In this document: positions 364 through 31,783 of the stretch, in pieces
How positions within the stretch are numbered: the stretch's first letter is position 1
Layout of the letters: each line of letters opens with the position of its first letter
Origin: Candidatus Hadarchaeum sp.
GTDB lineage: Archaea; Hadarchaeota; Hadarchaeia; Hadarchaeales; Hadarchaeaceae
Length of the DNA stretch: 36,957 bases
Assembly: GCF_038871235.1 (NCBI RefSeq)
Contig: NZ_JAVZIN010000012.1
Coordinates: 1 to 36,957 of the forward strand
Direction of reading: 5' to 3'
Program-made: the position numbers and the translations under genes
Notes under the pieces: model-generated
The model's database searches: none
Told to the model about the DNA's origin: nothing
The model's input: only the letters and a program-made list of their open reading frames with translations

Positions 364-1593
364 CTAGATTTTAATTATTTTTTTCTTTGAAGTACTCGCG
401 GCGATAATTTTTCCATTTTTTATTACATACAATCGAACGGGCTGAAAACGAAATGCATCTTTGATGTTATCCGCGTCAATAATCACGATATCTGCTGTTT
501 TGCCCGCCTGCAAACCATAATCCTGATATCTCATGGCTTTGGCCCCGTTCAAGGTGATCATGTCGTAAACTTTCTCCAACTCGGCAGGTGTACCCAGTTG
601 TGCCACGTGCGCCATGAGGAACCCCACCTCAAGCTGATCCATCTTCCCAAACGGATAATATGGATCGTTGACATCATCCTGCGCGGTGGCAACGTTGACG
701 CCTGCTTCTAAGAATTCTTTGACTCTAGTTATTCCTCGCCGGATGAGCCCAACGTCCCTCCTTCCATTTAACATGAGGCTGATGTGGGGGTTTGAAACTA
801 TCGTCATCTCAGCATCTCTCACCATTTGAATGACCCTAGCAGCGTGGCTGTTATCGTAGGCTGCCAAGGCCCCCGCGTGGCTTGCTGACACTCTTCCGAA
901 ATATTTTTTTTTTATCGCTTTATAGGCAAAATATTCGAGCGTCCTCGAGGTTGGGTCATCGGTATCATCAACCAGCATATGAATGTCCGCGCCAAACCTT
1001 TTGGCGATGTCAAACACGATATCAACATGCCTTTTTTGATCATCTCCAAACTCAATCCAAGGAATACCTCCAACAACGTCTGCCCCCAGCTCCATCGCTT
1101 GATAAAGTAGATCCTCTGTGCCTTCATCTTTGAGTATCCCCTCTTGAGGAAAAGCAACCACCTGCAAATCAACATGGTTGGCTCGTTCCTTCTTAATTTC
1201 CAGCAAGGCCTTAACTGGATTTAGTCCGCCTATAGTATCGACATCCGCAAAGGCCCTAATCCTCGTGCATCCGTATACCACGGCAAGATCGACCACTTGA
1301 TTGGCTCTTTTTTTAATCTCCTGAACAGTGTATCTTTTCTTGTATTCCCAAGTTCTTCTTATCCCCCCTTCACAGGTATCGACATTACCGCCAACAGCGT
1401 CTCCAATTAATGACTTATCGAGGTGGACATGTAGATTCACAAACGCAGGAGTCGTCAAACGTTCGTCAACATTAATTTCCTTATCCGATCTTTTTTTTAT
1501 TTTTCCAGATATCTCAACAATCTTTCCGTCTTTTATGCCGATGTCCCTTACCTCGCCACTTCTCAACTTAGCTTTTCTCAGGATAAGATCCAG
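364..1593 (-). CDS. Cytosine/creatinine deaminase-like amidohydrolase (CodA family, divergent active site)
   Basis: HVHLDK metal motif, LQVVAFPQEG, ASHA, QDD, YYPFG. ORF track starts at 1614; a GGGGTGA Shine-Dalgarno at 1605-1599 favours a CTG start at 1593 (MDLILRKAKL) or a nearby codon. Confidence 0.85.
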   Translation of the reverse strand: MDLILRKAKLRSGEVRDIGIKDGKIVEISGKIKKRSDKEINVDERLTTPAFVNLHVHLDKSLIGDAVGGNVDTCEGGIRRTWEYKKRYTVQEIKKRANQVVDLAVVYGCTRIRAFADVDTIGGLNPVKALLEIKKERANHVDLQVVAFPQEGILKDEGTEDLLYQAMELGADVVGGIPWIEFGDDQKRHVDIVFDIAKRFGADIHMLVDDTDDPTSRTLEYFAYKAIKKKYFGRVSASHAGALAAYDNSHAARVIQMVRDAEMTIVSNPHISLMLNGRRDVGLIRRGITRVKEFLEAGVNVATAQDDVNDPYYPFGKMDQLEVGFLMAHVAQLGTPAELEKVYDMITLNGAKAMRYQDYGLQAGKTADIVIIDADNIKDAFRFQPVRLYVIKNGKIIAASTSKKKIIKI

Positions 1594-1844
1594 TGACTTC
1601 ACCCCAAAAGACAAACAAGCTACTATCAGTATGATGGTAATAAAATATTTTGTTTGGACGTGTTGTTGTATTTAAAAACCTAATTTTAAGCCCTCAAGAT
1701 GTCATGAAAATAGTCAAAGTTTTCTCACCTACTTAAAATTTTCTCAATATCTTCATAAAAATCGAGATTAACTCAAGAAAATAGAACAATCAAGAGCTAA
1801 AACTTATAAGAGCTGCACATACCATCTCTTATGGAGGTCAAAAA

Positions 1845-2672
1845 ATGGTTGACAGGTTGCTTGAGTTGTTCGAAGAAAAAAGGGTGAAGATGTACGACCT
1901 ATCCCAGCCTCTTGGAATTCACACGCCATTTTGGCCCTACTACCCACCTTTTGAGGTAAAATACTTCAAACGTAAACCAGAACACGGTGTGAACGCTCAA
2001 TACATTCAAAGTTCACTACACATCGGCACACATCTCGACGCGCCAAGGCATTTCCTCACCGGAGGTAAGACCATCGACCAGCTGCCACTCGAGTGGCTTT
2101 GTGGACCCGGAGTTGTGGTTGACCTTACCGACGAAATGGACGACTTAGCCATTTACACCCCAGAGATGATCGAGAAGCGAGTGGATGTACATGAGGGAGA
2201 TATTCTCATCCTCCACACTGGATGGGAGAAATATGCTTGGTGCGGATCCCAGCCAGATGAAGAACGCTACATCCACTTACACCCTGGAGCCGACAGACGG
2301 ATGGTCGACTGGCTAATCAAAAAGAAAATTCACGTCTGGGGTATGGACTGTGTCTCCACCGACCACCCGATGAATCTCCCGATAGGACGATTCCTCGGAA
2401 AAGGCACTTTCGGCCAATGTGAAAGGGTCCGCGCGCTAGCTGAAAAGAAGTTCGGAGGCAAGGAAGCCGTTGACAAGCTCTTCCCGCAAGAGGACTATCA
2501 GCTGACCCACAACAAACTGTTCCCACATGACTGCATCCACCTAGAGAACCTCGGCGGTCAGATCAGTGCCCCAGAGATCCAAAACAAGAGGCTTGTGATC
2601 AGCTGCTTCCCGTGGCTATTCGAAGGCGGTGAATCGGCTTGGTGCCGGGTCGTTGCCTTTCTCTCCGAGTAA
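1845..2672 (+). CDS. Cyclase family / kynurenine formamidase-like metal-dependent hydrolase
   Basis: Signature HIGTHLDAPRHF (HxGTHxDxPxH), GDILILHTGW, C-terminal HLENL; GGAGG RBS before ATG. Confidence 0.9.
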   Translation: MVDRLLELFEEKRVKMYDLSQPLGIHTPFWPYYPPFEVKYFKRKPEHGVNAQYIQSSLHIGTHLDAPRHFLTGGKTIDQLPLEWLCGPGVVVDLTDEMDDLAIYTPEMIEKRVDVHEGDILILHTGWEKYAWCGSQPDEERYIHLHPGADRRMVDWLIKKKIHVWGMDCVSTDHPMNLPIGRFLGKGTFGQCERVRALAEKKFGGKEAVDKLFPQEDYQLTHNKLFPHDCIHLENLGGQISAPEIQNKRLVISCFPWLFEGGESAWCRVVAFLSE

Positions 2673-2708
2673 AAGCCCCGCAAAAATAACGCGGGGTATT
2701 TATTTTTT
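2672..2708. terminator. Hairpin between convergent genes, probable bidirectional terminator
   Basis: CCCCGC (2676-2681) / GCGGGG (2691-2696) stem, A-run on the left and T-rich run on the right, between two stop codons. Confidence 0.6.
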
Positions 2709-3180
2709 AATCTTGACTTCTTTTCGCCGCATCCAATATCGCATCAATAATTTGTCTGTAACCCGTACATCTACAGAGCAGGCCGCCGATGGCCTCCTTC
2801 ACCTCTTCCTCGCTTGGATTCGGATTACGCCTAAGAAACGCTTCTGCGGTTAAAATAAAGGCCGGTGTACAAAAACCGCACTGTACGGCTCCATGCTCAA
2901 CAAAGGCGCGTTGGACGCGCGATAGTTTCTCTCCGCGCGCGATACCCTCGATGGTAGTTATTTCCTTTCCGTCAGCTTCGACTGCCAGCACCAAACAAGA
3001 TTTCATCGGCACTCCATTCACCAGCACCGTGCAGAGCCCGCAATCACCACGCTCACATGCCTGCTTGGTGCCCGTTAAACCGAGATCTTCCCGGAGCAAT
3101 TGAAGAAGAGTCCGATTGGCTTCGATTTCAACGCTATATGACTCGCCATTTACTTTTAGTGAAATACAGTGCTTCACCAT
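2707..3180 (-). CDS. Xanthine dehydrogenase family 2x[2Fe-2S] small subunit (CoxS/XdhC-like)
   Basis: GTKQACERGDCGLCTV..SC and QCGFCTP...LCRCTGY cysteine motifs. Confidence 0.95.
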   Translation of the reverse strand: MVKHCISLKVNGESYSVEIEANRTLLQLLREDLGLTGTKQACERGDCGLCTVLVNGVPMKSCLVLAVEADGKEITTIEGIARGEKLSRVQRAFVEHGAVQCGFCTPAFILTAEAFLRRNPNPSEEEVKEAIGGLLCRCTGYRQIIDAILDAAKRSQD

Positions 3181-4034
3181 CAGCCCACTCCCCAGAGTTG
3201 CCTAAGAACTCTTTTAGTAAGCACTTCAGCCATGTGCACCCGATATTCTTTGCTGGCCCTAACGTCTGAGATGGGTGAAATCTTTCCGGCGACGATCGAT
3301 GCAGCTTTGTTTATTTGCTCCGCCAATGTGCCACCTTTCCAGAAAACTTCCTCTACTTCAGGAATGAGAAGCGGCGTGGGCGCAACCGAGGACAGAGCGA
3401 TACGCACCATCTTTTGATCGGGATTAACCAGTCCGGCGACCCCAACCACTGCCAGATCCTCGCCTCGTGTGCGACCCCACTTGAGATAACAGCTCATGGA
3501 TCCTTCCGGAGGATTAGGTACCCGTACGGCCTTAACTAGGTCACCGGGTCTGAGCGAAGTGCGCTTGACTCCAACAAAAAAGTCCTTGACAGGGATAACG
3601 CGTTCCCCAGCGCTATTCGCGACCTCAACCTCGGCACCGTGAACCAGCAGCGCTGGTGCGGTATCGGAGGCTGGAGAAGCGTTACAGATGTTTCCGACGA
3701 GTGTGGCGCGGTTCCTCAGTATCGGATCCCCCAAGGACCTCGAGGCATCCCAAAGTGCCCCAAATCGTTCCTTGACAACATTGGATTCAACCAACTGATT
3801 CAGGACAACGGCCGCCCCAATTCTGAGCCCATTTTCCCCATGAGATATCTCGCGCAACTCCCCAATGCCCTTAACGTCGATTAAATACCTTGGCCTGATT
3901 GCCCTGTCCCTCATCAGAACTAAAAGATCTGTCCCACCAGCGAGTACCCTTGCTTCACCATCGTGCTCGGCAAGCATACCAACTGCTTCCTGAACCGTTT
4001 TGGGTTTGAGATAATCAAATTTGGGCAGCGGCAA
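3180..4034 (-). CDS. Xanthine dehydrogenase family FAD-binding medium subunit (CoxM/XdhB-like)
   Basis: LAGGTDL, RNRATLVGNICNASPASD, DVRASKEYR; TTG start after GAGGTGA; no [4Fe-4S] insertion evident. Confidence 0.95.
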   Translation of the reverse strand: MPLPKFDYLKPKTVQEAVGMLAEHDGEARVLAGGTDLLVLMRDRAIRPRYLIDVKGIGELREISHGENGLRIGAAVVLNQLVESNVVKERFGALWDASRSLGDPILRNRATLVGNICNASPASDTAPALLVHGAEVEVANSAGERVIPVKDFFVGVKRTSLRPGDLVKAVRVPNPPEGSMSCYLKWGRTRGEDLAVVGVAGLVNPDQKMVRIALSSVAPTPLLIPEVEEVFWKGGTLAEQINKAASIVAGKISPISDVRASKEYRVHMAEVLTKRVLRQLWGVG

Positions 4035-4035
4035 C

Positions 4036-6366
4036 TCACTTCACCTCAGACTTTTTAAGCGCCTTCCACACTTTCTCCTTGGTCATCGGAAGTTCATAGA
4101 TATCAACTCCTGTGGCATTGTAAATCGCGTTGGCTATCGCGGGCTGCAGGGATATGGTCGGATGCTCGCCTATCCCCCTCGCCCCATAGGGACCATTACT
4201 TTGAGGATTTTCAATCATGATTGGCACAAACTCATCCGGAATGTCAGGTGCTCGCGGTATCTTGTAGTCGGTGAGGTTATTGTTCAGCAGAGCCCCCTTT
4301 TCATCGAATATATAGTCCTCGAATAGCGCCTGTCCTAGCGCCTGAACGACTCCTCCACATATCTGACCTTTAAGAAGTAATGGATTCAGAGCTTTCCCAA
4401 GGTCCAATGCGGTGGCTACCTTGAGTACCCTCACTTCACCGGTTTCGGGATCAACCTCAACCTCAACTCCCTGTGCCCCGAAGGTCCACACAAGCGCCGG
4501 CAACCCTTGTCCAGTCTCCGGATCCAAGTTTGTCAATCCCTCAGCGGTGTAATATCCATAACCAACTATCGGGCCCCGAATACCCCTGCCGTCGGGCAGC
4601 ACGCCGCAAGTCGCAACCGCAGCAAGCGTCAAGCCCCTCTCAGGCTCCCTTCCTACGAAAACCCGGCCATCGGCTATCTCCAGCGAATCCTCTGGCATCC
4701 CGAGCAACTGCGCGGCCGTGGCTTTTACTTGGCGTTTTAGGTCCTTTAATGCCTGCAAAACTGCATTGCCATCCATAAAAGTACCGCGACTTGCCACCGT
4801 CTGCCACGAGTAAGGGGAATAATCCGTTTCCCGCTTGCTGACGACTTTGATCCTGTCCACCGGCATCTGAAGTTCTTCCGCCGCCATCTGAACAAAAACC
4901 GTCGGGGTGCCTTGCCCCATTTCAATCAATCCAATCGAAAGAGTAACCGTCCCGTCTTCGTTTAGCTTGGCGATTGCGGAAGACGAAGCAAAGGACGGCA
5001 TCGCCGGAGCTTTCCAGAGCGCCGCAATTCCCTTTCCTCGCAGTTTTCCGTTTATCTGTCTTGGCTCCTTTCTTCCCCAACCTATTGCCTCGGCAACTGC
5101 TTTTATGCATTGATCGACCCGCCCGGCATCGTCTCGAAGTTTTTCACCGGAAGCAGTAATACGTCCAGGCAAAGCGGCATTCTTAAGACGAAATTCTACT
5201 GGGTCCATCCCAATCTTACGGGCCACCATATCCATCTGACGTTCAATGGCCCACAGTAGCTCTGGACAGCCAAACCCACGATAAGCGGTTCCATAGGGAT
5301 GATTTGTGTAGACGGTATAACTATCACACTTCACATTGGGAACTTCATAAGGGCCGGTGCAAGAATAGCCAGCGGCGCGCCCAATGTTTACGGCGTAGTC
5401 AGCATAGGCCCCAGTATCCCAGATATACTCGATCTCTTCGGCCGTTATCTTACCGTCCCGCTTGACACCGGTTTTTATGCGAGCATACATTCCCTGACGA
5501 ACAGCCACGGTGCGGAATTGCTCCTCGCGGCTCATCACCAACTTTACGGGTCTCCCTCCCGCTTTTCGAGAAAGCAGCACAACTAGAGGCTCCCAGTGAA
5601 GCCCAGCCTTTCCACCAAATCCTCCTCCAACATAGGGCACATGCACATTAATTTTGTGGATGGGCACACCTAGGCCAACGCTTAGCAGATGTCGAACGGC
5701 AAAAGGGGACTGGGCGCTTGTCCAGACATTTATCTGCCCGTTGGGAAGCCACTGCCCGATCGAGGTGTGGGTCTCCATCTGCACGTGGTGAACTTGGGGT
5801 TGGTAGAATTCATTTTCGACGATAAAGTCAGCCTCAGCAAAACCTCTTTCCACATCTCCTTTACGGAGCTTGAAATGGCTAGCGATGTTGGTGTGAGGTT
5901 TAGGAAAAATATATGGGGCGTGTTTGTACTCATGAAGATTTTCATGCACCAGAGGGGCACCTTCTTTCATCGCCTCACGCTGATCAAAAACAGCGGGCAG
6001 CTCCTCATACCGTACTTTTATCAACTCTAAAGCCTCTTCGGCTATCTCCTCGGTATCGGCGGCTACGGCGGCTACGGGCTCTCCGACGTGTCTGACCTTA
6101 TCAACGGCCAAGACCGTCTTGTCGCTCAGGTAAATACCAAAATGATACTTGGCTTCACTACCGGTAATTACGGCTCGAACGCCCGGTAAATTTTCAACCC
6201 CTGAAATATCGATTCCAACTATTCTAGCATGTGCATGTGGGCTCTTCAAAATTTTAGCGTGAAGCATCCCTGGCAAACGTATGTCTCCTGTGTATACTGC
6301 TGAACCAGCAACCTTTTCAACCGCATCAACACGCTCAACATCACGACCCAAATAGGAGTACTTCAT
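4036..6366 (-). CDS. Xanthine dehydrogenase family molybdopterin-binding large subunit
   Basis: GGGFGGK, AYRGFG, EMGQG, VASRGT, GQICGG, GARGIGE (catalytic Glu). The form I CODH motif AYRCSFR is absent. Confidence 0.95.
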   Translation of the reverse strand: MKYSYLGRDVERVDAVEKVAGSAVYTGDIRLPGMLHAKILKSPHAHARIVGIDISGVENLPGVRAVITGSEAKYHFGIYLSDKTVLAVDKVRHVGEPVAAVAADTEEIAEEALELIKVRYEELPAVFDQREAMKEGAPLVHENLHEYKHAPYIFPKPHTNIASHFKLRKGDVERGFAEADFIVENEFYQPQVHHVQMETHTSIGQWLPNGQINVWTSAQSPFAVRHLLSVGLGVPIHKINVHVPYVGGGFGGKAGLHWEPLVVLLSRKAGGRPVKLVMSREEQFRTVAVRQGMYARIKTGVKRDGKITAEEIEYIWDTGAYADYAVNIGRAAGYSCTGPYEVPNVKCDSYTVYTNHPYGTAYRGFGCPELLWAIERQMDMVARKIGMDPVEFRLKNAALPGRITASGEKLRDDAGRVDQCIKAVAEAIGWGRKEPRQINGKLRGKGIAALWKAPAMPSFASSSAIAKLNEDGTVTLSIGLIEMGQGTPTVFVQMAAEELQMPVDRIKVVSKRETDYSPYSWQTVASRGTFMDGNAVLQALKDLKRQVKATAAQLLGMPEDSLEIADGRVFVGREPERGLTLAAVATCGVLPDGRGIRGPIVGYGYYTAEGLTNLDPETGQGLPALVWTFGAQGVEVEVDPETGEVRVLKVATALDLGKALNPLLLKGQICGGVVQALGQALFEDYIFDEKGALLNNNLTDYKIPRAPDIPDEFVPIMIENPQSNGPYGARGIGEHPTISLQPAIANAIYNATGVDIYELPMTKEKVWKALKKSEVK

Positions 6367-6403
6367 GTACTCACAAACAATATCAAAAAAATAACTTAAA
6401 AAG

Positions 6404-6643
6404 TTATCTAAGGCCCCCGCCTACCAGTGGAACGAGCACTATTTCGTCTCCGTCCTTAACGGGACTGTTTTCATCCACAGGCGTCCCGTTTAAATATATC
6501 AAAGCAATGGAAGCCGGGTGGTACTTCAACGCCTCGAAAACATCAATCACTCTCATCCCTTCCCTGAAATCAAGCTCCGTCCACCCGCTTGCCGCGGCGA
6601 GCTGTACACGTATTACCAAACTAACCCCATAAATATCTAACAT
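6404..6643 (-). CDS. MoaD/ThiS/SAMP ubiquitin-like sulfur carrier with C-terminal extension
   Basis: LNG...VKDGDEIVLVPLVGGG beta-grasp C-terminus followed by LR; immediately upstream of the Mo-enzyme genes. Start uncertain. Confidence 0.8.
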   Translation of the reverse strand: MLDIYGVSLVIRVQLAAASGWTELDFREGMRVIDVFEALKYHPASIALIYLNGTPVDENSPVKDGDEIVLVPLVGGGLR

Positions 6644-6764
6644 TCTTTATTTATTCAATTGATTTTTATTGGTAAGGAGGGTTTAACCTAACACAATTTA
6701 AAGCGCTTTGAAAAGAGTCCGGAACATAAGCTCAGCGATGATTTTAAGCAACTTCAGCCGAAAG

Positions 6765-8555
6765 ATGAAGCGTATGTTTGGTGGACATTTTAAGGTCCAA
6801 AGAAGCCTCGTTAACGTGGCCATGGGTCGAGAAAAAGCGGATCTCGTGATCAGTGGTGGCAAAATAATAAATGTCCACAGCCGTGAGATACACAAATCCG
6901 ATATCGCCATTAAGTCCGGCCGAATAGCCCTCGTGGGAGATGCTGACCACACCGTGGGTAGAGAAACCAAGGTAATTGACGCAGGAGGATTTTACTTGGC
7001 TCCAGGACTTATCGACACGCACATCCATATTGAAGCGAGTATGCTTACCCCCACTCAATTCGCTAGGGCCTGTTTGCCCCGGGGAGTCACCGCGGTCCTG
7101 TGGGAACCTCTGTGGACGGCGAATGTTCTGGGGAAGAGAGGGGTAAAATTCTTCTTGGACGAAGGAAACAGAACCCCCCTAAAACTTTTTGCGACAGCGT
7201 CGTCAGGAGTTCCACCTGCACCTAAGGTTATGATAACAGCTGCCACAGAATTCAAAATGAGTGATATCAGACAATTGCTTAAATGGGAAAAAATAGTGGG
7301 GCTGGGAGAAGTAGTATTTTTCGCGGAAGTGACAAAGGGGGATCCAAAAACGTTGGAGAAGATACGGGCATCATTAGTTGAAGGGAAAATCGTTGACGGA
7401 AGCGCACCGGAATTTAAAGGAAAAGAACTAAACGCATACGCTGCCGCAGGAGTGCAGTCTGACCACGAAGCGATCACCTTAGATGAAGCAATTGAAAGGC
7501 TCAGGTTGGGGATGCGCTTGGTTATCAGGGAGGGCTCGAGCATGCGTAACCTATCAGAACTCATTAAGATTATTACTCAAAGAGGTCTTGATCCGCGCCA
7601 CTGTTGTTTTTGTGTAGATGATAAGGACATCAGAGAAATTTTCAAAGAAGGATTGATTGACCATATGGTCAGACGTTCGATAAAAGCAGGAATAGACCCG
7701 GTGACCGCGGTACAGATCGCGACGCTTAACGCTGCAGAATACATAGGGATAGACCGGGATATAGGGAGTATTGCCCCGGGCAGGATCGCCGACATTCTTT
7801 TCGTTGACGACCTAAGCAAATTTTCCATCAAAAAAGTCATGGTAAATGGAAAAATAATAGCCAGGGATGGAAAAATGCTCATAAGGTTGTCTCAAATCAA
7901 TTATCCCAAATGGATCCTGAAAACCATCAGGGTTGCTAGGAAGATCACCCCTGCCGATTTCGCCGTCAGAACCAGAAGGAGGGGAAAAGTGAAAGTTCGG
8001 GTGATAAAGGTATTCGCCGATCAGATTATTACTGACCAGATAATCGAAACGCTTCTGGCACAAAATGGAGTTATCCGACCCGACCCGTCCAAAGACATCC
8101 TTAAAATAGCAATGATCGAAAGATTCGGTAAAACAAAACCAAACATAGGGAAGGGATTTGTGAAGGGGTTCGGCTTTAAAGAAGGGGCCATAGCAACTAG
8201 CGTAGCACCTGACGTACATCACCTGATAGCGGTTGGCAATAAGGACGCTGACATGGCCACCGCCATAAACAGGTTGATTGAAATTCAAGGAGGAATAGTT
8301 GTCTGCAGGGATAAAAGGGTGCTTGGCGAGCTGCCACTGCCTGTAGGAGGCATCGTCTCACCGGAACCTTATGAGAAGATTTTAAGTGATCTGGAAAAAA
8401 TCCATGAGGCAATCAGGGAAATTGGCTGTAAGCTTCCATCTCCTTTTATGACACTAGCGTTCTCAGGTTGCCCGACACTCACTCGGCTCAAGATCTCAGA
8501 TAAAGGGCTGATTGATACCGTCAACCGTAAAATTGTACCAGTTGAAGTGGGATGA
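6765..8555 (+). CDS. Adenine deaminase (AdeC)-family amidohydrolase, divergent active site
   Basis: APGLIDTHIHIEASML, GLGE, SDHE, IREGS, CVDD, LPLPVGG, PFMTLAF. Start probably ATG 6765 or 6774 after the TTTTAAG box at 6742-6748 (ORF track starts at 6708). Confidence 0.88.
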   Translation: MKRMFGGHFKVQRSLVNVAMGREKADLVISGGKIINVHSREIHKSDIAIKSGRIALVGDADHTVGRETKVIDAGGFYLAPGLIDTHIHIEASMLTPTQFARACLPRGVTAVLWEPLWTANVLGKRGVKFFLDEGNRTPLKLFATASSGVPPAPKVMITAATEFKMSDIRQLLKWEKIVGLGEVVFFAEVTKGDPKTLEKIRASLVEGKIVDGSAPEFKGKELNAYAAAGVQSDHEAITLDEAIERLRLGMRLVIREGSSMRNLSELIKIITQRGLDPRHCCFCVDDKDIREIFKEGLIDHMVRRSIKAGIDPVTAVQIATLNAAEYIGIDRDIGSIAPGRIADILFVDDLSKFSIKKVMVNGKIIARDGKMLIRLSQINYPKWILKTIRVARKITPADFAVRTRRRGKVKVRVIKVFADQIITDQIIETLLAQNGVIRPDPSKDILKIAMIERFGKTKPNIGKGFVKGFGFKEGAIATSVAPDVHHLIAVGNKDADMATAINRLIEIQGGIVVCRDKRVLGELPLPVGGIVSPEPYEKILSDLEKIHEAIREIGCKLPSPFMTLAFSGCPTLTRLKISDKGLIDTVNRKIVPVEVG

Positions 8556-8775
8556 TTATTAAGCCGATCCAAGCATTCATCTCATTGCGATCAATCTCAA
8601 CATCCCGACACTTGCCTTAAAACCACTGAATTTTGGGGTTCCGCAGAGGATTTTGCCCACACCTAGACTGACGGCAGCTCAATTTTCAGCGAGTGTTGAG
8701 ACCGACACGTACTTTAAAATATATATCCGCCTTGAGTGAATTCTGGTGTTGAAACAATATCGGTGATGTGACAAC

Positions 8776-10080
8776 ATGGAAAATAAATTTAGAATAGAAA
8801 AGATTGTGGCTAGAGAAATTTTAGACTGCCGAGGTGACCCGACCGTTGAAGTGGACATCCTGACCAAAGGAGGTTCACTAGGAAGGGCTGACGTCCCTGT
8901 AGGAAGATCCACCGGAAAATATGAAGCATTCGAGCTCAGGGACGGAGGGAAAAGATATCGCGGAAGGGGGGTCTTAAAAGCTATAAAAAACATCAATGCG
9001 GTCATTGGCCCAAAGTTGATTGGAATGGATGTTACCAGGCAAAGGGAAATAGATGAACTATTGCTCAAACTTGATGGCACCAAGGACAAATCGAGACTGG
9101 GAGCCAACGCGATAGTGGGTGTCTCCTTAGCCGCTGCGAAGGCTGCCGCGCAAAGCCTAGGAATGCCCTTATATCAATACATTGGAGGACCAAACGCCCG
9201 GATCCTACCGGTCCCTTTCCTGAACCTCATAAACGGGGGCAAACTCGCTGCAACCGAACTCGATTTCCAAGAACACATCGTAGTGCCAACGGGTGCCAAG
9301 ACTTTTTCGGAGGCGATCAGGATGGGCACCGAGGTTTATCACGAACTCGGGAGGATATTGGAGAAGAAGTGGGGAAGGCACTCATTGAATGTCGCCGACG
9401 AAGGCGGTTATACCCCTCCAGGCATGAACGACGTCAGGCAGGCTTTCGATGAGGAATTAAGGGCAATAGAAGAACTCGGCTACACGGATAAGTTTGCGCT
9501 CGCCTTAGATGTCGCCGCAAGTCACCTCTATGACAGGAAGGGGGGAGTTTACTTGATAAAGGGGAAAAAGATGACTAGGGAGGATTTAATTGATTTTTAC
9601 AAGGAACTGGTAAAAACATACCCTGTTGCGTCCATCGAGGATCCCTTGGAGCAAAACGACTTTGATGGCTTTGCGGAACTGACCAAGGAGCTGGGAATTC
9701 AAATAGTAGGAGATGATCTCTTTGTGACCAACGCGGAGCGACTGGGGAAGGGGATAGAATGCGGGGCCGCAAATGCTCTACTCTGGAAGGTAAACCAAGT
9801 AGGAACGCTAACTGAGGCTTTGGATGTGGCTAAGCTTGCCTTTGATAATGGCTACGGTGTCCAAGTCTCCGAGCGATCCGGGCAGACCGAGGACACGTGG
9901 CTGGCGGATATGGCGGTCGCTTTGAACTGCGGGCAGATAAAAACCGGCGCTCCGTGCAGAAGCGAGAGAACTGCCCAATATAACCAGCTGCTTAGAATAG
10001 AGGAGGAACTTGGCGCATCCGCAAAATACGCGGGTAAGAACTTCAGACGCGCGCGATTAAAAATTAAACAACAACAATAA
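8776..10080 (+). CDS. Enolase-family protein (divergent paralog)
   Basis: AREILDCRGDPTVEV, STGKYEAFELRD, DEGG, LDVAAS, IEDP, VGDDLFVTN, KVNQVGT, QIKTGAPCRSER; two conserved His positions substituted (see findings). Confidence 0.92.
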   Translation: MENKFRIEKIVAREILDCRGDPTVEVDILTKGGSLGRADVPVGRSTGKYEAFELRDGGKRYRGRGVLKAIKNINAVIGPKLIGMDVTRQREIDELLLKLDGTKDKSRLGANAIVGVSLAAAKAAAQSLGMPLYQYIGGPNARILPVPFLNLINGGKLAATELDFQEHIVVPTGAKTFSEAIRMGTEVYHELGRILEKKWGRHSLNVADEGGYTPPGMNDVRQAFDEELRAIEELGYTDKFALALDVAASHLYDRKGGVYLIKGKKMTREDLIDFYKELVKTYPVASIEDPLEQNDFDGFAELTKELGIQIVGDDLFVTNAERLGKGIECGAANALLWKVNQVGTLTEALDVAKLAFDNGYGVQVSERSGQTEDTWLADMAVALNCGQIKTGAPCRSERTAQYNQLLRIEEELGASAKYAGKNFRRARLKIKQQQ

Positions 10081-11431
10081 CGATGAGGTCCATCACGTTC
10101 GTCCCGGTAGGCCCAGTTATAATAGCATCTTTTAATCTTTTCATCAGCTTGCCCGTGTTGTGCCTCCTTATCTCCACCGACACGTCCATGCCCAGCTCCC
10201 TTGCTCTCTCGACGGAATATCCGTCCGCCATGCCTCCGGCAACTTCTGTTAGTCCGTCCGTTCCATCCGTATTTACCGCTGCGATTGCTATTCTCCTGTT
10301 CCCAGCTATTTTTGTGGAAAAAGCGGCGGCTAATTCTTGATTTCGCCCGCCCTCGCCTGCCTTGCCCTCGATAGTAACGGTCGTCTCCCCGCCAGCTATA
10401 AGGACACATGGAGGATTAAGGGGCCTTCCATACTTCTCCACCTCTTTTGCTATGCCTGCCAAGACGAAACCGACATCCTTGCTCTCTCCTTCCAAGACCG
10501 TGGAGAGAATCTGGGAATTTAATCCTATTTCCTCCGCCCTTTCCTTAGCGGCTTCGCATGCAGTTTTGATATCCGCCAATAGAAAATTATGAAATTTAAC
10601 CTCCTTGAAGCTCTCAGGCTTGGGTGTTTCCATCTTAAGATCCGACCTTTTAAGGTGGTCCCTTACCGAGGTAGGGACCTTATCCCACAATCCATACTTT
10701 CTCAAAACGTGGATGGCATCGTCAAATGTAGATGTATCCGGCACCGTCGGGCCCCACGGCAAACCAGCTACCTCATCCACCACGATTAAGTTTATGATCT
10801 CGGCCGGATGAGCTCGCAAAGCAAGCCTTCCTCCCTTTATTGCAGAAATGTGGTTCCGGACGGCATTTATTTCATCTATCGTGGCCCCGCTCCTGAGAAG
10901 CAATTCCGTGGTTCTCGCTTTGTCCTCCAAACTTACGCCCTCAACTGGCAAGGGCATCAAAGCAGAGCAACCCCCAGCCACACAGAAGAAAACCAGATCG
11001 TTTTTCTCCCTGCTCTTTAAAGCGTCCCAAATCTCCTTTGCGCCTTTCCAACCCGCCCGATCGGGTACAGGGTGTCTGGATCTTAGGACTCTGATTCTGC
11101 CTAACCTGCTTTCTCTCTCATTTTTTATCCTTTTTTCTATTATGATTCCCTCTTTGATCCTCATCCCAAGCACATCATTTAATGCCTTGGCTATGTGCAG
11201 AGTCCCCTTTCCGGCACCCATCACAAAGATATCTCCAACTTTTGAAAGATCGTAACTCAAATCGCCCACGAATAGCTTCCCACCGTGGACACGAACCAGC
11301 TTTTTCACTATATTATAGCTATCCAATTTTTTCAGGGCATGCTCGACTATGTCTAGGGCTATTTTCCTACCTTTTTTGTTTCCATGGGAAAGTAACTGTT
11401 TTCTATTTTTTACCAGCATGGCACCAATCAT
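10064..11431 (-). CDS. Glycerate 2-kinase (GckA/TtuD, MOFRL domain) family protein, divergent
   Basis: GAGKG, HPVPD, GGCSAL, SGATIDEINAVRNHISAIKGGRLA, GGETTV, GGRNQE, TDGTDG, TGPTGTNVMD. Overlaps the enolase 3' end by 17 bp. Confidence 0.9.
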   Translation of the reverse strand: MIGAMLVKNRKQLLSHGNKKGRKIALDIVEHALKKLDSYNIVKKLVRVHGGKLFVGDLSYDLSKVGDIFVMGAGKGTLHIAKALNDVLGMRIKEGIIIEKRIKNERESRLGRIRVLRSRHPVPDRAGWKGAKEIWDALKSREKNDLVFFCVAGGCSALMPLPVEGVSLEDKARTTELLLRSGATIDEINAVRNHISAIKGGRLALRAHPAEIINLIVVDEVAGLPWGPTVPDTSTFDDAIHVLRKYGLWDKVPTSVRDHLKRSDLKMETPKPESFKEVKFHNFLLADIKTACEAAKERAEEIGLNSQILSTVLEGESKDVGFVLAGIAKEVEKYGRPLNPPCVLIAGGETTVTIEGKAGEGGRNQELAAAFSTKIAGNRRIAIAAVNTDGTDGLTEVAGGMADGYSVERARELGMDVSVEIRRHNTGKLMKRLKDAIITGPTGTNVMDLIVIVVV

Positions 11432-11567
11432 CTGTTAATCCCAGGATTATTTACGATTACTGAGGTTCAGCCTTTTCAAATTGAGTTTGAGAAAAATTAA
11501 CAATTTACAGCCATGCTAAAATCAACAATTAAAAATAGAGAAACATTAGTTAAACAGGAGGTTCACA

Positions 11568-12959
11568 TTGGATTTGGTTATTAAAAATTGTAAAATAGCT
11601 TCTTCCCGGGGTTTGTGGGAATGCGGGCTTGGCATAGACGATGGTAAGATAGTATCAATTTCCAAGGACCACCTCCTGCCCGCCGCCGATAGGGTAATAA
11701 ATTGCAATGGAAGGATAATCCTCCCTGGTGGAATCGATTTTCACGTGCATTTCCAAGACCCGGGATACACGTACAGAGAGGACTGGAAAACAGGGACGGG
11801 ATCAGCGGCCGCTGGTGGTACGACATTGGTCGTCGACCACGGCAACACCAATCCACCATCGACCACTCCGAAAAATTTAATGCGGATAATTAAAACCGCT
11901 GAAAGAAAGGCGATCGTCGACTTTGGTATCAATGGCGCTGTCACGTCAAAGAACTTAAACCATCTGCCAAAACTAGCCGCCAAGGGTGTAATGGCATTTG
12001 GCGAAATTTATATGGCCGAGTCTGTTCCTGAGCTTGAGAGGGTTGAAGACGGTATCCTGCTCGAAGCCTTTAAAATAATTGGCAAAATGGGATGCATCGC
12101 CGGCGTACATGCGGAAAACTGGGAAATTGTTTCCCACTTTACACAAAAACTCAAGCAAGCCAAAAGAAAAGATCCCCTCGCCCACTGTGAATCTAGGCCG
12201 GATATTGCAGAGGCAGAGGCCATATCTAGAGCGCTACTCTTTGGACGAGAGACTGGCGTTCGCCTCCATATTTTCCACCTAAGCACCGGACTCGGGACTA
12301 ATATTTTGCGGCAAGCGAGGTCCCTCGGGCAGGATGTAAGCGCCGAAGTTCTTCCTCAGCATCTCCTTTTCAGACAAGCAGATATGAAGAAACTAGGACC
12401 TTACCTGAAATGCAACCCGCCCATAAGAAGCGAAGCAAATAGAGTTGCTCTGTGGGAAGGATTGAAAACTGGTGTGATAGAGATGGTTTCGAGTGACCAT
12501 TGGCCAATGCCACTCTCCGAGGTTGAAGCCGGGTGGGAGGATATTTGGAAAGCAGGTTCAGGAATAGCTGGTGTCGAGACAAGATTACCGCTCCTACTGA
12601 CCTACGGGGTGAAAAAAAATTTAATTTCAATGGAAAAATTTGTCAGGATAACTTCCGAGAACCCGGCCCGCAAGCTGGGCCTTTACCCAAGGAAGGGATC
12701 AATAAGTATAGGAGCAGATGCTGATTTGACTATTGTCGACATGAAGAAAAAAGTTAAAATAAAGATAGATAACTTGCGCACGAAGGCGGGTTACACGCCC
12801 TTCGAAAATTGGACTGTTGTCGGTATACCATGGTTAACGTTGGTGCGTGGTGAAATCGTGTTTGAGGAAGGGGAAATCGTGGCTAAACCGGGGCATGGTA
12901 GGTACATTCAACGTGACTACGGAAAGAAGGAGGAACATGGTGCCAGCAAAAAAATCTGA
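11568..12959 (+). CDS. Cyclic amidohydrolase (dihydroorotase/allantoinase/dihydropyrimidinase superfamily)
   Basis: LPGGIDFHVH, AAAGGTT, VHAEN, HIFHLST, KCNPPIR, SSDH, NPARKLGLYPRKG, GADAD; TTG start after GGAGG. Confidence 0.9.
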   Translation: MDLVIKNCKIASSRGLWECGLGIDDGKIVSISKDHLLPAADRVINCNGRIILPGGIDFHVHFQDPGYTYREDWKTGTGSAAAGGTTLVVDHGNTNPPSTTPKNLMRIIKTAERKAIVDFGINGAVTSKNLNHLPKLAAKGVMAFGEIYMAESVPELERVEDGILLEAFKIIGKMGCIAGVHAENWEIVSHFTQKLKQAKRKDPLAHCESRPDIAEAEAISRALLFGRETGVRLHIFHLSTGLGTNILRQARSLGQDVSAEVLPQHLLFRQADMKKLGPYLKCNPPIRSEANRVALWEGLKTGVIEMVSSDHWPMPLSEVEAGWEDIWKAGSGIAGVETRLPLLLTYGVKKNLISMEKFVRITSENPARKLGLYPRKGSISIGADADLTIVDMKKKVKIKIDNLRTKAGYTPFENWTVVGIPWLTLVRGEIVFEEGEIVAKPGHGRYIQRDYGKKEEHGASKKI

Positions 12960-13647
12960 GTTCGAAAAACTGCTCAGACTCATGAGCCGACAGGGTACCA
13001 TCCGTCACTTTAAACCAGATCCAGTTCCGGACAAACTCATAGAGAAAATACTTGAGGCCGCTAGGTGGGCCCCCTCAGGCGCCAACACACAGCCATGGGA
13101 CTTCATCGTGGTGAAGGACCCGAGAGCAAGGGAGAAAATCGCTCAAATTTTCGTTGAGACCTACGAGCGGGCTAAAAAATTGGACAGGAGATTCCCCTTC
13201 TACAGCGGTGAGGTGTTACGGAAGAGGCTCACCGAACCACCCATTCTCATCGTGGTTTGTGCCGACACGCGATTCACGAGTGCTTATCCCAATACCATCT
13301 ATAGGGAAGAGATTCTAGATGTCAGCATGGGGGCGGCCATTCAAAACATGACCTTGGCGGCAAGTGCTCTCGGGTTGGGGCTTGGCTGGGGTACCGCAAA
13401 CTTCCCCTTGACCAGAAAGAGGCTCAGGCAACTGTTAGGAGTCCCATCGTACATCAAGATAATGGAGGTTCTTCAGCTCGGCTTCCCAGTCAAGCGGGTC
13501 CCGCCGCGTTTCAGACGACCCATAAGTGAATTCACGCACCACAATAGGTTCGATGTCTCAAAGATCAGGAGCGAGGAGGAGATCGAAAACTTGCTGAGGA
13601 CAAGGAAAGTCCCTGACATCTATTCAGGCACTAAATTGCCGAAGTGA
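12937..13647 (+). CDS. Nitroreductase family flavoprotein
   Basis: IRHFKPDPV, ARWAPSGANTQPWDFIVV, AIQNMTLAASALGLG; true start ATG 12937 after GGAGG (ORF track extends to 12847). Confidence 0.9.
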   Translation: MVPAKKSEFEKLLRLMSRQGTIRHFKPDPVPDKLIEKILEAARWAPSGANTQPWDFIVVKDPRAREKIAQIFVETYERAKKLDRRFPFYSGEVLRKRLTEPPILIVVCADTRFTSAYPNTIYREEILDVSMGAAIQNMTLAASALGLGLGWGTANFPLTRKRLRQLLGVPSYIKIMEVLQLGFPVKRVPPRFRRPISEFTHHNRFDVSKIRSEEEIENLLRTRKVPDIYSGTKLPK

Positions 13648-13651
13648 TAAG

Positions 13652-14872
13652 ATGAGGGACCCAATTAATGTAAAAAAAGTTGATCTCTCGGTGAAATTTT
13701 GTGGGCTTGAATTTGAAAACCCGTTTATCCTCTCATCGGGGCCGCCAACGAGTAATGCTGAGAAAATAGGGCGAGCCTTTGAAGCTGGCTGGGCCGGCGC
13801 CGTCACGAAAGTTTTGGGTTCAAAACCGCGGCCGGACCCCCATCCACGGATAGCAGGCCTACATTACGGGGGGAAGTTAATTGCGATTGAAAATATAGAA
13901 TCGGTAATTTATCCCTTAAAGGAATGGTTACCCAAGATCACTGAACTCAAGAAAAAATATCCGGAAAAGATCTTGATACCAAACCTCATGGGTGGAGCAG
14001 ACCCGGAGATCTGGCAAGGAATGATCAAAGACGTCCAAGAAGCAGGAGCGGATATGATCGAGCTCAACTTATCCTGCCCGCTGACGGATGAAGTCTGGGC
14101 TGTTGGAGCAATATTGGGCCAGAACCCCGACCTAACGCGCGAGGCCACGAGGTTGGCCAAGGAGGTCGCGACCGTTCCGATAATGGTAAAGCTCACTCCA
14201 AATGTGACAGATATAACTTTAATAGCAAAAGCGGCAGAGCGTGGAGGAGCTGACGCCATCTCAGCTATTAACACCGTTCAGGGGCTCATAGGAATAGACC
14301 TTGAAAACATGGAGCCACTACCTTCCGTGAGAGGGATATCCTCGTTCGGCGGAATCTCAGGACCAGCAATCAAGCCCATCTCCCTCAGATGCGTGGCGCA
14401 AATAGCAAAGACAACAAAGCTACCTATTTCAGGGATCGGCGGCATCTCTAAATGGGAAGATGCGGTTGAGTTTTTCATGGTGGGCGCCTCCACCGTTCAG
14501 CTCTGTACCTCTGTGATGCTGCGTGGAAATAGGATGATAAACGAGCTCAAAGATGGTGTTTCCTCCTATCTTTATAAAAAGGGATTCGGATCCGTAAAGG
14601 AAATCGTGGGGTGCATCCTGTCCAAGCTAAAGAGCCAAGAAAATCTGGACTATTCTTATTGGGTGCTTCCAGCAGTTGATGCAGCCAGATGTACCAAATG
14701 TGAATTGTGCCGGGTTGCATGCCAAGACGCGGGTTATGCCGCCATTAAAATCGAGGGTGATCTGCCTAAGATTGATGAAGAAAAATGCAATGCCTGCGGC
14801 CTCTGTATCCAAGTTTGCCCACATGGAGCTTTACTCTTAAAACCGAGTTTGTCGAATAAATCCAACAAATAA
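13652..14872 (+). CDS. preA: Dihydropyrimidine dehydrogenase PreA-like subunit (FMN barrel + 2x[4Fe-4S]); C-terminus altered by IS insertion
   Basis: NPFILSSGPPT, GWAGAVTK, NIE, ELNLSCP (catalytic Cys), KLTPNVTDI, AINT, GGISGPAIKP, CxxCxxCxxxC twice. Confidence 0.85.
   Translation: MRDPINVKKVDLSVKFCGLEFENPFILSSGPPTSNAEKIGRAFEAGWAGAVTKVLGSKPRPDPHPRIAGLHYGGKLIAIENIESVIYPLKEWLPKITELKKKYPEKILIPNLMGGADPEIWQGMIKDVQEAGADMIELNLSCPLTDEVWAVGAILGQNPDLTREATRLAKEVATVPIMVKLTPNVTDITLIAKAAERGGADAISAINTVQGLIGIDLENMEPLPSVRGISSFGGISGPAIKPISLRCVAQIAKTTKLPISGIGGISKWEDAVEFFMVGASTVQLCTSVMLRGNRMINELKDGVSSYLYKKGFGSVKEIVGCILSKLKSQENLDYSYWVLPAVDAARCTKCELCRVACQDAGYAAIKIEGDLPKIDEEKCNACGLCIQVCPHGALLLKPSLSNKSNK
14836..14844 (+). 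repeat. Target site duplication, left copy (CTTAAAACC)
   Basis: Identical to 15878-15886 and directly abutting the IR. Confidence 0.95.
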
Positions 14873-15772
14873 AAAATAACCCATCTCCTTCATCGCTCGG
14901 ACGCGCACCAGAGTGCGCAGGTTGTGCGCCACGGCCATAAGCAGAACGCTGACTGCCCTCGTGGCCGGCAACTTGCACCTGATCATGGCACCGTACCGGT
15001 TCGCTATGCCGCCGAAGACAGCCTCGGCGATGCCCCGCTGGCGGTACAGCTTGAGGTTGCGCCTGAACTCCTTGAACTTCTTTTGGTTGACCCAACGGTC
15101 CATCCCTATGGCGCGGGGTTTGATCACCGGCTTGAAGCCATGGTGAGCCGCAATCTCGACGTTGCGCCTCGAGTCGTATCCTCTGTCCGCGAGCAATGGC
15201 TCGCCTCCACCTTTGAAGCCATCAAGCAAACGGCCGAGCTGTGCGCAGTCGGCGACGTTGCCTGCTGTCACCTTCGCCGACACAATCGCTAATGCACCCG
15301 CCTGCGGGGAATATCCCACCAGCGCATGCAGCTTCAGGAATGCGCGGCTCCAAGACTTTTTGAGCACCCTTTTGCGCCTCGACAGGCACGTCGTCGAGAT
15401 GCCGGTCGAGTCTATCATGTAGATACCGCACCTCGCCAGCCTGTTTATCTCCCTGAAGAGCAACAGAAGAAGCAGCTTCAGGTAGGGCGCTCGCAGGCGC
15501 TTCAGCGCCCAGCCGACCGTGGAGTGATCGATGGTCTTAGACGTGATGAGGGGCATCTGCCCCTCGACATCGCGGTAAGTGTAGTCAAAATATCGAGCCG
15601 TGGCACAGATCGCGGCGTGCCGCCGCGCCGAAAACTTGGGTCGACGGCCCCGCTTGGAGCGCTCCCAAGGAGGCGGCAGCCTCCTCACGAGCTTATCGGC
15701 AAGGCTAAATATTCTCTCGACTGAATCGAGTTTGGAGCTGTGTCGAGCAGCCCAATATCCGGGGCAAACCAT
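14837..15772 (-). CDS. DDE transposase (IS5/IS4-like)
   Basis: IDSTG, KLH, LADRGYDS, YRQRGIAEAVF (YREK-like) motifs; AGGAGGT RBS 8 nt upstream of ATG. Confidence 0.92.
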   Translation of the reverse strand: MVCPGYWAARHSSKLDSVERIFSLADKLVRRLPPPWERSKRGRRPKFSARRHAAICATARYFDYTYRDVEGQMPLITSKTIDHSTVGWALKRLRAPYLKLLLLLLFREINRLARCGIYMIDSTGISTTCLSRRKRVLKKSWSRAFLKLHALVGYSPQAGALAIVSAKVTAGNVADCAQLGRLLDGFKGGGEPLLADRGYDSRRNVEIAAHHGFKPVIKPRAIGMDRWVNQKKFKEFRRNLKLYRQRGIAEAVFGGIANRYGAMIRCKLPATRAVSVLLMAVAHNLRTLVRVRAMKEMGYFLFVGFIRQTRF

Positions 15773-21500: not shown

Positions 21501-22334
21501 ATGAAATTCGGCCTCTCTGGGCTGCTCTTTCCCCACCTTGACATGGAAGAAGTCATCTCCAGCATTGGCAAGCTTGGCGCCGACCATGCTGAGCTGATCT
21601 TCGACCTGCCCAACTTTACGCCGGAATTCAACCTGAATAAGCTACCCAAGCTCAGAAAGCTGGTCAATTCCTACGGGTTGGCCATCTCCATCCATGGACC
21701 GATCTGGGATCTCAACCCGACTAGCTGGCACGCTACCGTTAGAGATCTGGCACTAAAATACCTGAAAAAAAGCATCGATGTCTGCAACGCCTTGGGCGGT
21801 GAAATTATCGTAATACACCCGGGCAGATGCCCATTTCCCCACGAGGAGAGGTTCCTCTTACCAGCCCAAGAACGCTTCCTGAACTTTATCCAAAGTTCCC
21901 TAAAATACGCTCGAAACCGGGGCGTAAAACTAACTCTGGAGAACTTCCCCATGAACACCGAATTCCCCTACTCATCACCACAGGAAATGCTAACGCTGGT
22001 TAAAGAGCTTGATGATCTGAAGATAACATTTGATGTGGGGCACGCCTTTTTGAACAAGACCTGGCAAAAGCTCTGCTCTCCGGAGAAAAAAATTGCCGAG
22101 GAGATAAAGATGGTCGGAGAATACATCACTAACATCCACTTTCACGACAACCGGGGAGAGCGAGATGACCATCTGCCACCGGGGAAGGGCATAATTAATT
22201 TCACCCCTATCCTCAAGACCCTCAGAAAAATCAACTACAATGGCTGGGTTACCGTAGAACTACATAAAACCGAAGACCCCATAGAGACGGGTAGGATCGG
22301 GCTCGAGAAAACAAGAGAACTATTTAGGAGGTAA
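21501..22334 (+). CDS. Sugar phosphate isomerase/epimerase, xylose-isomerase-like TIM barrel (AP endonuclease 2 family)
   Basis: SIHGP, VIHPG, LEN, FDVGHA, HFHDN, DDHLPPGKGIINF, VE metal-binding pattern. Confidence 0.85.
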   Translation: MKFGLSGLLFPHLDMEEVISSIGKLGADHAELIFDLPNFTPEFNLNKLPKLRKLVNSYGLAISIHGPIWDLNPTSWHATVRDLALKYLKKSIDVCNALGGEIIVIHPGRCPFPHEERFLLPAQERFLNFIQSSLKYARNRGVKLTLENFPMNTEFPYSSPQEMLTLVKELDDLKITFDVGHAFLNKTWQKLCSPEKKIAEEIKMVGEYITNIHFHDNRGERDDHLPPGKGIINFTPILKTLRKINYNGWVTVELHKTEDPIETGRIGLEKTRELFRR

Positions 22335-28848: not shown

Positions 28849-28850
28849 GG

Positions 28851-30958: not shown

Positions 30959-30964
30959 GGTCCG

Positions 30965-31717: not shown

Positions 31718-31783
31718 GCGCATCAACCTTTCTTAAACCAGTGACTATGATTCAATAACTGTAAGATATAGACATATTTAACA

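Follow-up and report, generated by a model that had tools for sequence, protein, structure and literature searches.

In a 36,957-nucleotide stretch of a Candidatus Hadarchaeum genome (contig NZ_JAVZIN010000012.1; the whole stretch is called the window below) one gene encodes an enolase paralog, P0001, in which both active-site histidines of canonical enolases, His159 and His373, are replaced. We give a probability of roughly 0.55 to the reading that P0001 is a neofunctionalised enolase-type lyase which works as a module with the product of the adjacent MOFRL kinase gene and acts on a 3-substituted 2-hydroxy acid. The active-site signature, the paralogy, the conservation within a clade, the linkage to the kinase and the co-duplication of the kinase are observed; the chemistry and the change of substrate are what we infer. 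The coordinates of all features are collected in Table 1.

The open reading frame of P0001 is intact and open and codes for 434 amino acids. Both enolase domains were found with Pfam (Enolase_N, 187.6 bits; Enolase_C, 374 bits), and the NCBIfam model TIGR01060 is matched with 559 bits, its cut-off being 300. This model is not discriminating, as paralogs without Glu211 and Glu168 still reach 316–341 bits. The closest solved relative is the M. jannaschii enolase MJ0232 (PDB 2pa6; phmmer E 1.4e-165), with 59% identity. A structure model, which the first-pass annotation of this DNA had proposed as a check, was built with AlphaFold2 from a 38-sequence alignment; it has a mean predicted local distance difference test score (pLDDT) of 92.7 and a template modelling (TM) score of 0.96 on 2pa6, confirming the enolase fold. 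Among solved structures, compared by sequence and by structure, none was closer to P0001 than the canonical enolases. A Pfam scan at E≤0.001 gave no methylaspartate-lyase domain, the matches being Enolase_C, Enolase_N and a weak MR_MLE_C.

Four substitutions mark the active site (yeast enolase residue numbers are used throughout for comparison). His159 of canonical enolase is Leu157 in P0001 and His373, where barrel strand 7 ends, is Glu366; in addition Glu376 is Gln370 and Ala38 of the first lid loop is Arg44. The three motifs concerned align with 2pa6 without gaps (phmmer; inggkLaateld/inggkHagndld, vsErsgQted/vsHrsgEted and vpVgRstg/vpSgAstg, P0001 first). The codons CTC and GAG stand exactly where the first-pass annotation had read leucine for His159 and glutamate for His373, and its PVGRSTG in place of PSGASTG is likewise borne out, while the change of Glu376 to Gln was printed in one of its motifs without being flagged. 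Apart from these four and six further clade-discriminating positions, P0001 resembles canonical enolase (EC 4.2.1.11; MJ0232) closely. It has the same two-domain fold, and a MAFFT site table finds S39, Q167, E168, E211, D246, E295, D320, K345, R374, S375 and K396 all retained, in agreement with the earlier statement that the Mg ligands, the lysine base, the acid glutamate, the Arg-Ser pair and the lysine of QIKTG are intact. In the numbering of P0001 the Mg ligands are D245, E288, D314 and S45, which are kept in 31/31 variant sequences (29/29 for Ser39), and the base, the acids and the phosphate site are K338, E209, E166, K389 and R367-S368, all of them present.

In canonical enolase the leaving hydroxyl is surrounded by His373, Glu168 and Glu211, and the yeast enzyme is badly impaired when either His159 or His373 is mutated singly, most of its activity being lost. 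A pattern scan of 74 unrelated enolases found His159 in 74/74 and matched the His373 pattern in 70/74, the remaining four giving no pattern match. In the M. tuberculosis enolase, the His159 equivalent is described as touching the phosphate and the 3-hydroxyl of 2-phosphoglycerate and is proposed as the driver of loop closure (PMC10619443). Since the four changes reshape the part of the site that deals with the 3-hydroxyl and the phosphate, the substrate is most likely not plain D-2-phosphoglycerate. The more acidic pocket suggested by the first-pass annotation holds in so far as Glu366 is added, but E376Q and A38R bring charge back, and H159L makes one side more hydrophobic. As judged from the sequence, the pocket for the C3 substituent would have a hydrophobic side (Leu157, Ala159) and a more anionic side (Glu366, held by Gln370), with Arg44 added to the lid.

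This signature is strongly conserved. We took the best 120 relatives of P0001 from a 5.8-billion-protein collection (70–84% identity), which with the query makes 121 sequences. Leu159 and Glu373 are each found in 121/121, Gln376 in 119/121 and a basic residue at position 38 in 121/121 (119 Arg, 2 Lys). Since it is fixed across 121 sequences, we do not regard the signature as a product of chance or decay. The named sequences among the best 120 come from metagenome-assembled genomes (MAGs) of Bathyarchaeia/Bathyarchaeota, Nitrososphaerota and Aigarchaeota, and are annotated either as enolase or as phosphopyruvate hydratase. A separate, genome-derived set compared 31 variant sequences with 14 canonical controls. 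Here Leu159 occurs in 31/31 variants as against His in 14/14 controls, Gln376 in 31/31 variants as against Glu or Asp in the controls, and Arg or Lys at position 38 in 29/29 variants covering the region as against Ala in 13/14 controls, the other having Lys. Ten positions of P0001 (44, 114, 157, 159, 204, 240, 366, 370, 375 and 376) separate the 31 variants from canonical enolases of the same class with non-overlapping residues; Trp343 and His169 look distinctive but are not clade-specific. The catalytic and metal residues are invariant across the 31 variant sequences, down to about 60% identity.

In the tree the variants are monophyletic (29/29, Shimodaira–Hasegawa-like support 0.874). Their sister is a further paralog sharing Leu159 and Glu373, and both adjoin the canonical Bathyarchaeia enolases. 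Locus L094 carries a variant enolase (9013-10296), a tandem paralog (10340-11587) and a split MOFRL kinase (11674-13024) in succession; this second paralog, with Leu38, Leu159, Glu373, Glu376 and Asp211, is the tree sister of the whole variant clade. At locus L112 (9698-10936) a Bathyarchaeia enolase with the canonical His159 and His373 has Lys38 and His169. It may represent an intermediate, and in it a basic residue at position 38 coexists with the canonical histidines, so the two are compatible.

Loss of function would be another way to account for the missing histidines, P0001 then being a non-catalytic or decaying copy, either a moonlighting structural protein or an incipient pseudogene. 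Two relatives that look damaged speak for this. At L008 (7278-8546, in a 'Methanomicrobia' MAG) the reading frame of the variant enolase is interrupted by an in-frame TAA close to the 5' end, and at L109 (8063-9448) the kinase beside the variant enolase is broken into three fragments; these genes may be pseudogenes or assembly errors. Against it stand the intact reading frame, the conservation of metal and acid/base residues across 31 sequences, the signature in 121/121 and the confident model, and we consider decay very improbable indeed.

The second line of evidence is the neighbouring gene, which codes for a kinase with DUF4147 and MOFRL domains and is the sole MOFRL gene of the window genome. 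The kinase scores 340 bits against PDB 1x3l (PH0495, titled 'hypothetical protein'), which we take to be a glycerate 2-kinase, and stays far under the cut-offs of the NCBIfam equivalog models (237 vs 550 and 158 vs 670). A MOFRL kinase lies within the locus at 23/30 variant loci compared to 0/13 canonical enolase loci of the same class (Fisher p 4.6e-6 on a table of 23/30 vs 0/12, in which related genomes are not independent). Nor are the locus counts themselves independent, since there are close relatives among the loci (L099/L100 and L005/L006/L093, for instance). In five of the seven variant loci without a kinase the contig breaks off next to the enolase; at the other two (L106 and L108) about 9 kb are present on both sides of the variant enolase and the kinase is absent.

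MOFRL matches, which are not exact copy numbers, were present in 289/401 sampled Bathyarchaeia genomes, mostly as single matches. At least two were found in 21/27 variant-bearing Bathyarchaeia genomes compared to 23/374 others. In the kinase tree the 21 variant-linked kinases form one clade, apart from 20 housekeeping MOFRL kinases, 8 of which come from variant-bearing genomes. Because of this excess of matches in variant genomes and the separate kinase clade, we conclude that kinase and enolase were duplicated together and stayed together.

The third line is paralogy. Two Enolase_C genes are present in the genome to which the window belongs (1.2 Mb in 16 contigs, completeness 94.75%). The second, on contig 4, shows PSGAS, GGKHA and SHRSGET, the canonical motifs, and the gene for ribosomal protein S2 follows it directly, so that P0001 is not the only enolase and its description as a paralog in the first-pass annotation stands. 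P0001 thus differs from a canonical enolase in being an extra copy beside one and in having a linked kinase of its own. Of the variant-bearing genomes examined, 29/31 had at least one more Enolase_C gene, the His/His state of the second copy having been verified in three cases (the window genome, L008 and L117). In the organism's own class an enolase was found in 64/65 genomes, nearly always the contig-4 type, with a score of about 250 bits. Far higher scores were reached by five matches in the class; of the four outside the window, which were fetched, only that of genome G048 has the variant signature, the other three being canonical. The variant was found in 0/7 other genomes of the same genus. 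P0001 groups with a relative at L003 from a different class (76% identity), inside a Bathyarchaeia-dominated clade. This grouping and the IS5 transposase that bounds the catabolic island described below are consistent with lateral acquisition.

How such a module might work can be outlined from the residues retained. In a first step the kinase would transfer a phosphate from ATP to the 2-hydroxyl group of a 3-substituted 2-hydroxy acid resembling glycerate. P0001 would then hold the 2-phospho acid on two Mg2+ ions (Asp245/Glu288/Asp314, Ser45), Lys338 would take the C2 proton, and the C3 substituent would depart from a pocket made of Glu166 and Glu209 together with the newly acquired Glu366 and Leu157. 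The product would be phosphoenolpyruvate (PEP) or a 3-substituted analogue. Candidate substrates would be a 3-amino acid (2-phospho-isoserine, with loss of NH3), a 3-ureido acid or a C4 acid such as 2-phospho-2,3-dihydroxybutanoate. The altered-substrate idea of the first-pass annotation is favoured by the intact core, the remodelled C3/phosphate pocket and the kinase linkage; the pyrimidine context of its specific proposal is confined to the window.

The same two enzyme families are known to act in the same order elsewhere. Thermoproteus tenax has a non-phosphorylative Entner-Doudoroff branch in which 2-O-phosphorylation is followed by an enolase-type elimination to PEP (PMC2063504). There the kinase feeds the housekeeping enolase, whereas here both enzymes are extra, co-duplicated and adjacent, with signatures of their own. 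In the open-access library that was searched, only this glycerate kinase paper was found to deal with enolase together with MOFRL, and no paper on the variant clade or on natural His373/His159 variants came to light.

Several observations weigh against a changed substrate. P0001 is 59% identical to a genuine enolase and has every residue needed for chemistry on 2-phosphoglycerate, and because the canonical enolase at L112 has Lys38, the change at position 38 alone is no sign of a new substrate. The partner kinases share 94 invariant positions with the housekeeping clade and have only three that are clade-specific (K100, H424 and M447), two of which are shared with PH0495, so that only the change of Asn447 to Met, in the conserved TNVxD motif, is distinctive. 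Residue 447 is Asn or Thr in housekeeping kinases and Met in the variant partners, and the change may give a hint of the substrate. Two genomes (G480 and G347) showed the variant only, with no second Enolase_C gene, and in a third (G169) the second Enolase_C gene is of a divergent type only; all three are MAGs of unstated completeness. Some variant loci, moreover, have neighbours of the kind expected for plain glycerate, namely a glyoxylate/hydroxypyruvate-reductase-like dehydrogenase (5/30) and GlcD/GlcF-like genes (2/30).

On such grounds P0001 could have ordinary enolase duty, the pair forming a dedicated branch from D-glycerate through 2-phosphoglycerate to PEP that draws on glyoxylate, hydroxypyruvate or the breakdown of purines. 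The substitutions would then be mutually compensating, for example Arg38 for His159 at the phosphate and Glu373/Gln376 for the His373/Glu376 pair, and would tune kinetics, pH or metal preference. The complete catalytic set, the high TIGR01060 score, the glyoxylate/hydroxypyruvate-reductase-like and GlcDF-like neighbours and the 2–3/31 variant genomes in which no other enolase was found all fit this explanation, as does the closeness of the kinase to class II glycerate 2-kinases, which make 2-phosphoglycerate from D-glycerate (PMC2063504). Yet genomes that already have a housekeeping kinase and a housekeeping enolase would have no obvious need for a second copy of each, and the unrelated enolases sampled keep His159 and, wherever the pattern matched, His373. 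Housekeeping MOFRL kinases lie beside canonical enolases in 0/13 control loci, and parallel pairs of kinase and enolase-like genes, described below, lack Glu211 and Glu168 and cannot be enolases. We regard ordinary enolase duty as a serious possibility that nevertheless falls short of even odds. What favours an enolase-type lyase with a changed substrate is that the remodelled site has been conserved and occurs together with a kinase of its own.

The parallel pairs come from Bathyarchaeia, some genomes of which have 6–8 Enolase_C and 6–7 MOFRL matches. Divergent enolase-like genes, 42–46% identical to P0001, have a MOFRL-like kinase directly adjacent in 9/12 fetched loci, and we count this recurrence of the same architecture for the changed-substrate reading. 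Examples of such pairs, from the set L145–L153, are 3759-5024 with 5081-6493 at L146 and 3360-4967 with 4992-6266 at L150. The divergent paralogs retain Asp246/Glu295/Asp320, Ser39 and Lys345, and replace Gln167-Glu168 (by Pro-Ser), Glu211 (variable), His159, His373, Arg374-Ser375 (by Ser-Arg) and Lys396 (by Arg). As Glu211 and Glu168 are absent, these proteins are clearly not enolases. A database search at E≤1e-80 gave at least 1361 members of one such family. In the best 120 of these, Pro-Ser, Ser-Arg, the Mg ligands and Lys345 are each found in 120/120 and Arg396 in 119/120, and the named matches among them are called enolase or phosphopyruvate hydratase. The divergent proteins of L145–L154 pass the TIGR01060 'eno' equivalog model (316–341 bits, cut-off 300) without Glu211 or Glu168, so automatic annotation will call them phosphopyruvate hydratase. 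Residue 447 of the kinases in divergent pairs is mostly Gln or Arg, and Gly or Asn in 2/8 (L150, L151).

From these pairs we draw, tentatively and with more doubt than confidence, a wider proposal, that the members of the enolase subgroup do not all share one function. In Bathyarchaeia and archaea close to them there would then be several families of paired MOFRL kinase and enolase-like lyase, each with a different 3-substituted 2-hydroxy acid. In each, 2-O-phosphorylation would be followed by elimination of the 3-substituent to PEP or a PEP analogue, the phosphate being recoverable as ATP. The pair in the window would be the one closest to true enolase, removing a non-hydroxyl group (e.g. NH3 from 2-phospho-isoserine) or using a C4 analogue. 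In current annotation all these enolase-like proteins go under phosphopyruvate hydratase.

The genes around the pair in the window (Table 1) belong largely to families of nitrogen-compound catabolism, and judging from these families the region 364-15772 looks like a nitrogen-heterocycle catabolic island that includes the kinase/enolase pair. The genes in 11568-14872 could form an unusual reductive set for opening N-heterocycle rings. The PreA-like gene has no PreT-like partner nearby. The frames called at 11568-12959 and 12847-13647 share 113 nt, so that the true start of the second is probably further downstream. Elsewhere in the window are housekeeping genes, among them one for an O-phosphoseryl-tRNA synthetase-like protein (SepRS_C domain; 22324-23913) and an exosome/SBDS/proteasome-alpha superoperon (28084-31726), and a further D-2-hydroxyacid dehydrogenase (33099-34007). 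DNA nearly identical to positions 8600-11500 was found only in hot-spring metagenome runs from three studies, one of which is perhaps the source; the runs listed were DNA runs, with no RNA run among them.

Table 1. Features of the window discussed in the text.
Feature	Position	Strand	Remark
Variant enolase paralog P0001	8776..10080	+	Enolase fold and catalytic core; signature R44/L157/E366/Q370
Arg44, codon AGA	8905..8907	+	Yeast Ala38; lid loop 1, beside the Mg-binding Ser
Leu157, codon CTC	9244..9246	+	Yeast His159; loop 2
Glu366, codon GAG	9871..9873	+	Yeast His373; directly after barrel strand 361-365 of the model
Gln370, codon CAG	9883..9885	+	Yeast Glu376
Partner kinase, DUF4147+MOFRL	10064..11431	-	Class II glycerate-2-kinase-like; convergent with the enolase gene, 17-nt overlap
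Amidohydrolase	364-1614	-	Context particular to this window; module membership uncertain
Cyclase-family gene	1845-2672	+	Context particular to this window; module membership uncertain
Three-subunit xanthine-dehydrogenase-like Mo enzyme	2707-6366	-	Context particular to this window; module membership uncertain
Adenine deaminase	6708-8555	+	Context particular to this window; module membership uncertain
Cyclic amidohydrolase (dihydroorotase/allantoinase/dihydropyrimidinase-like)	11568-12959	+	Window-specific context
Nitroreductase family (nitroreductase/BluB-like flavoprotein)	12847-13647	+	Window-specific context
PreA-like dihydropyrimidine dehydrogenase subunit	13652-14872	+	Above NCBIfam cut-off; window-specific context
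IS5-family DDE transposase	14837..15772	-	Island edge; frame overlaps 3' end of PreA-like gene

At thresholds of blastp E<1e-15 and coverage of at least 50%, the xanthine-dehydrogenase-like, adenine deaminase, cyclic amidohydrolase, nitroreductase, PreA-like, amidohydrolase and cyclase genes of the window recur in 0/29 other variant loci. The pyrimidine-reduction context is therefore unique to this window. Other neighbours do recur, counted at 30 variant and 12 canonical loci. Class-III aminotransferases were found at 6/30 variant loci (0/12 canonical), D-2-hydroxyacid dehydrogenases of the glyoxylate/hydroxypyruvate-reductase type at 5/30 (0/12), LarA-family 2-hydroxyacid racemases at 4/30 (1/12), CoA-acylating methylmalonate-semialdehyde dehydrogenases at 3/30 (0/12), F420-dependent LLM oxidoreductases at 3/30 (1/12) and M20 deacylases at 4/30 (2/12). 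GlcD/GlcF-like genes occur at 2/30 variant loci (GlcD-like 0/12 and GlcF-like 5/12 canonical), ornithine transcarbamoylase (OTC)-like genes at 2/30 (3/12) and carbamate kinase at 2/30; a creatininase-family gene is also among the neighbours of variant enolases. As far as family membership tells, the theme is catabolism of small hydroxy and amino acids, and no single substrate is singled out.

These contexts bear most directly on the specific substrate put forward in the first-pass annotation, which is a special case of the changed-substrate reading. The kinase would act on isoserine, which would arise when 5-hydroxyuracil or a related N-heterocycle is broken down reductively, and the variant enolase would eliminate NH3 from 2-phospho-isoserine to give PEP. 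With Glu366 added to Glu166 and Glu209, the C3 substituent would have three glutamates around it, a setting suited to an ammonium group. Enzymes of nitrogen catabolism are among the recurrent neighbours (class-III aminotransferase, M20, carbamate kinase with OTC-like, creatininase-family), and the window itself has the cyclic amidohydrolase, PreA-like, xanthine-dehydrogenase-like and adenine deaminase genes. 3-Methylaspartate ammonia-lyase is an enolase-superfamily enzyme of a different subgroup that eliminates ammonia by way of a Mg-stabilised enolate. Its loss of a beta-amino group is the chemistry that phospho-isoserine would require, although P0001 does not have its domain. Against this proposal, pyrimidine-reduction genes adjoin the pair in the window only (0/29 other loci), and the changes are hydrophobic (Asn to Met in TNVxD of the kinase, Leu and Ala in the enolase) rather than added acids. 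Because its motif change is to Met and not to an acidic residue, the kinase gives no support for an ammonium substituent. A class-III aminotransferase, moreover, could strip the amine from isoserine without any lyase. In the open-access library that was searched we found no paper with both isoserine and enolase, and nothing relevant on isoserine in connection with kinases and degradation.

A known pathway ends differently. The recently described reductive (2,8-dioxopurine) urate pathway, with XdhD, YgfK, SsnA, HyuA, YgeW, YqeA, YgeY and YgeX, finishes with the conversion of 2,3-diaminopropionate to pyruvate by YgeX, and the abstracts of the two reports mention no kinase or enolase step (10.1101/2025.05.19.654654; 10.1101/2025.04.24.650524). 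Families of that pathway are also found near the variant pair, a likeness at the level of family and not of orthology. They are represented in the window by the xanthine-dehydrogenase-like enzyme, amidohydrolases and a hydantoinase-like gene, and elsewhere by OTC-like and carbamate kinase genes (L003, L105), a pyridoxal phosphate enzyme (L003) and M20 hydrolases (L006, L008, L090, L096). On balance we think 2-phospho-isoserine an improbable substrate.

Three further explanations were considered and set aside. Thermoadaptation was rejected because both histidines are still present in the canonical enolases of hyperthermophiles, MJ0232 among them. 2-Phospholactate, suggested by the link to F420 and by LarA- and D-lactate-dehydrogenase-like neighbours, is an unlikely substrate, as it has no C3 leaving group and yet Glu211 and Glu168 are strictly conserved. 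Anionic leaving groups such as sulfonate or phosphate are disfavoured by the added Glu366.

To our knowledge, enolase is usually regarded as a single-function subgroup of its superfamily. If P0001 is indeed a lyase with a changed substrate, a clade with both histidines replaced and a kinase of its own would be a counter-example inside the enolase subgroup itself, and would point to an unrecognised kinase/lyase route by which uncultured, mostly anaerobic archaea bring unusual hydroxy acids to PEP. Metabolic reconstructions of Bathyarchaeia-type genomes that count 'enolase' are likely to mis-assign several genes per genome, because TIGR01060 passes both the variants, with 559 bits for P0001, and the paralogs without Glu211. 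The finding would be relevant both to the enzymology of the enolase superfamily and to the reconstruction of archaeal metabolism.

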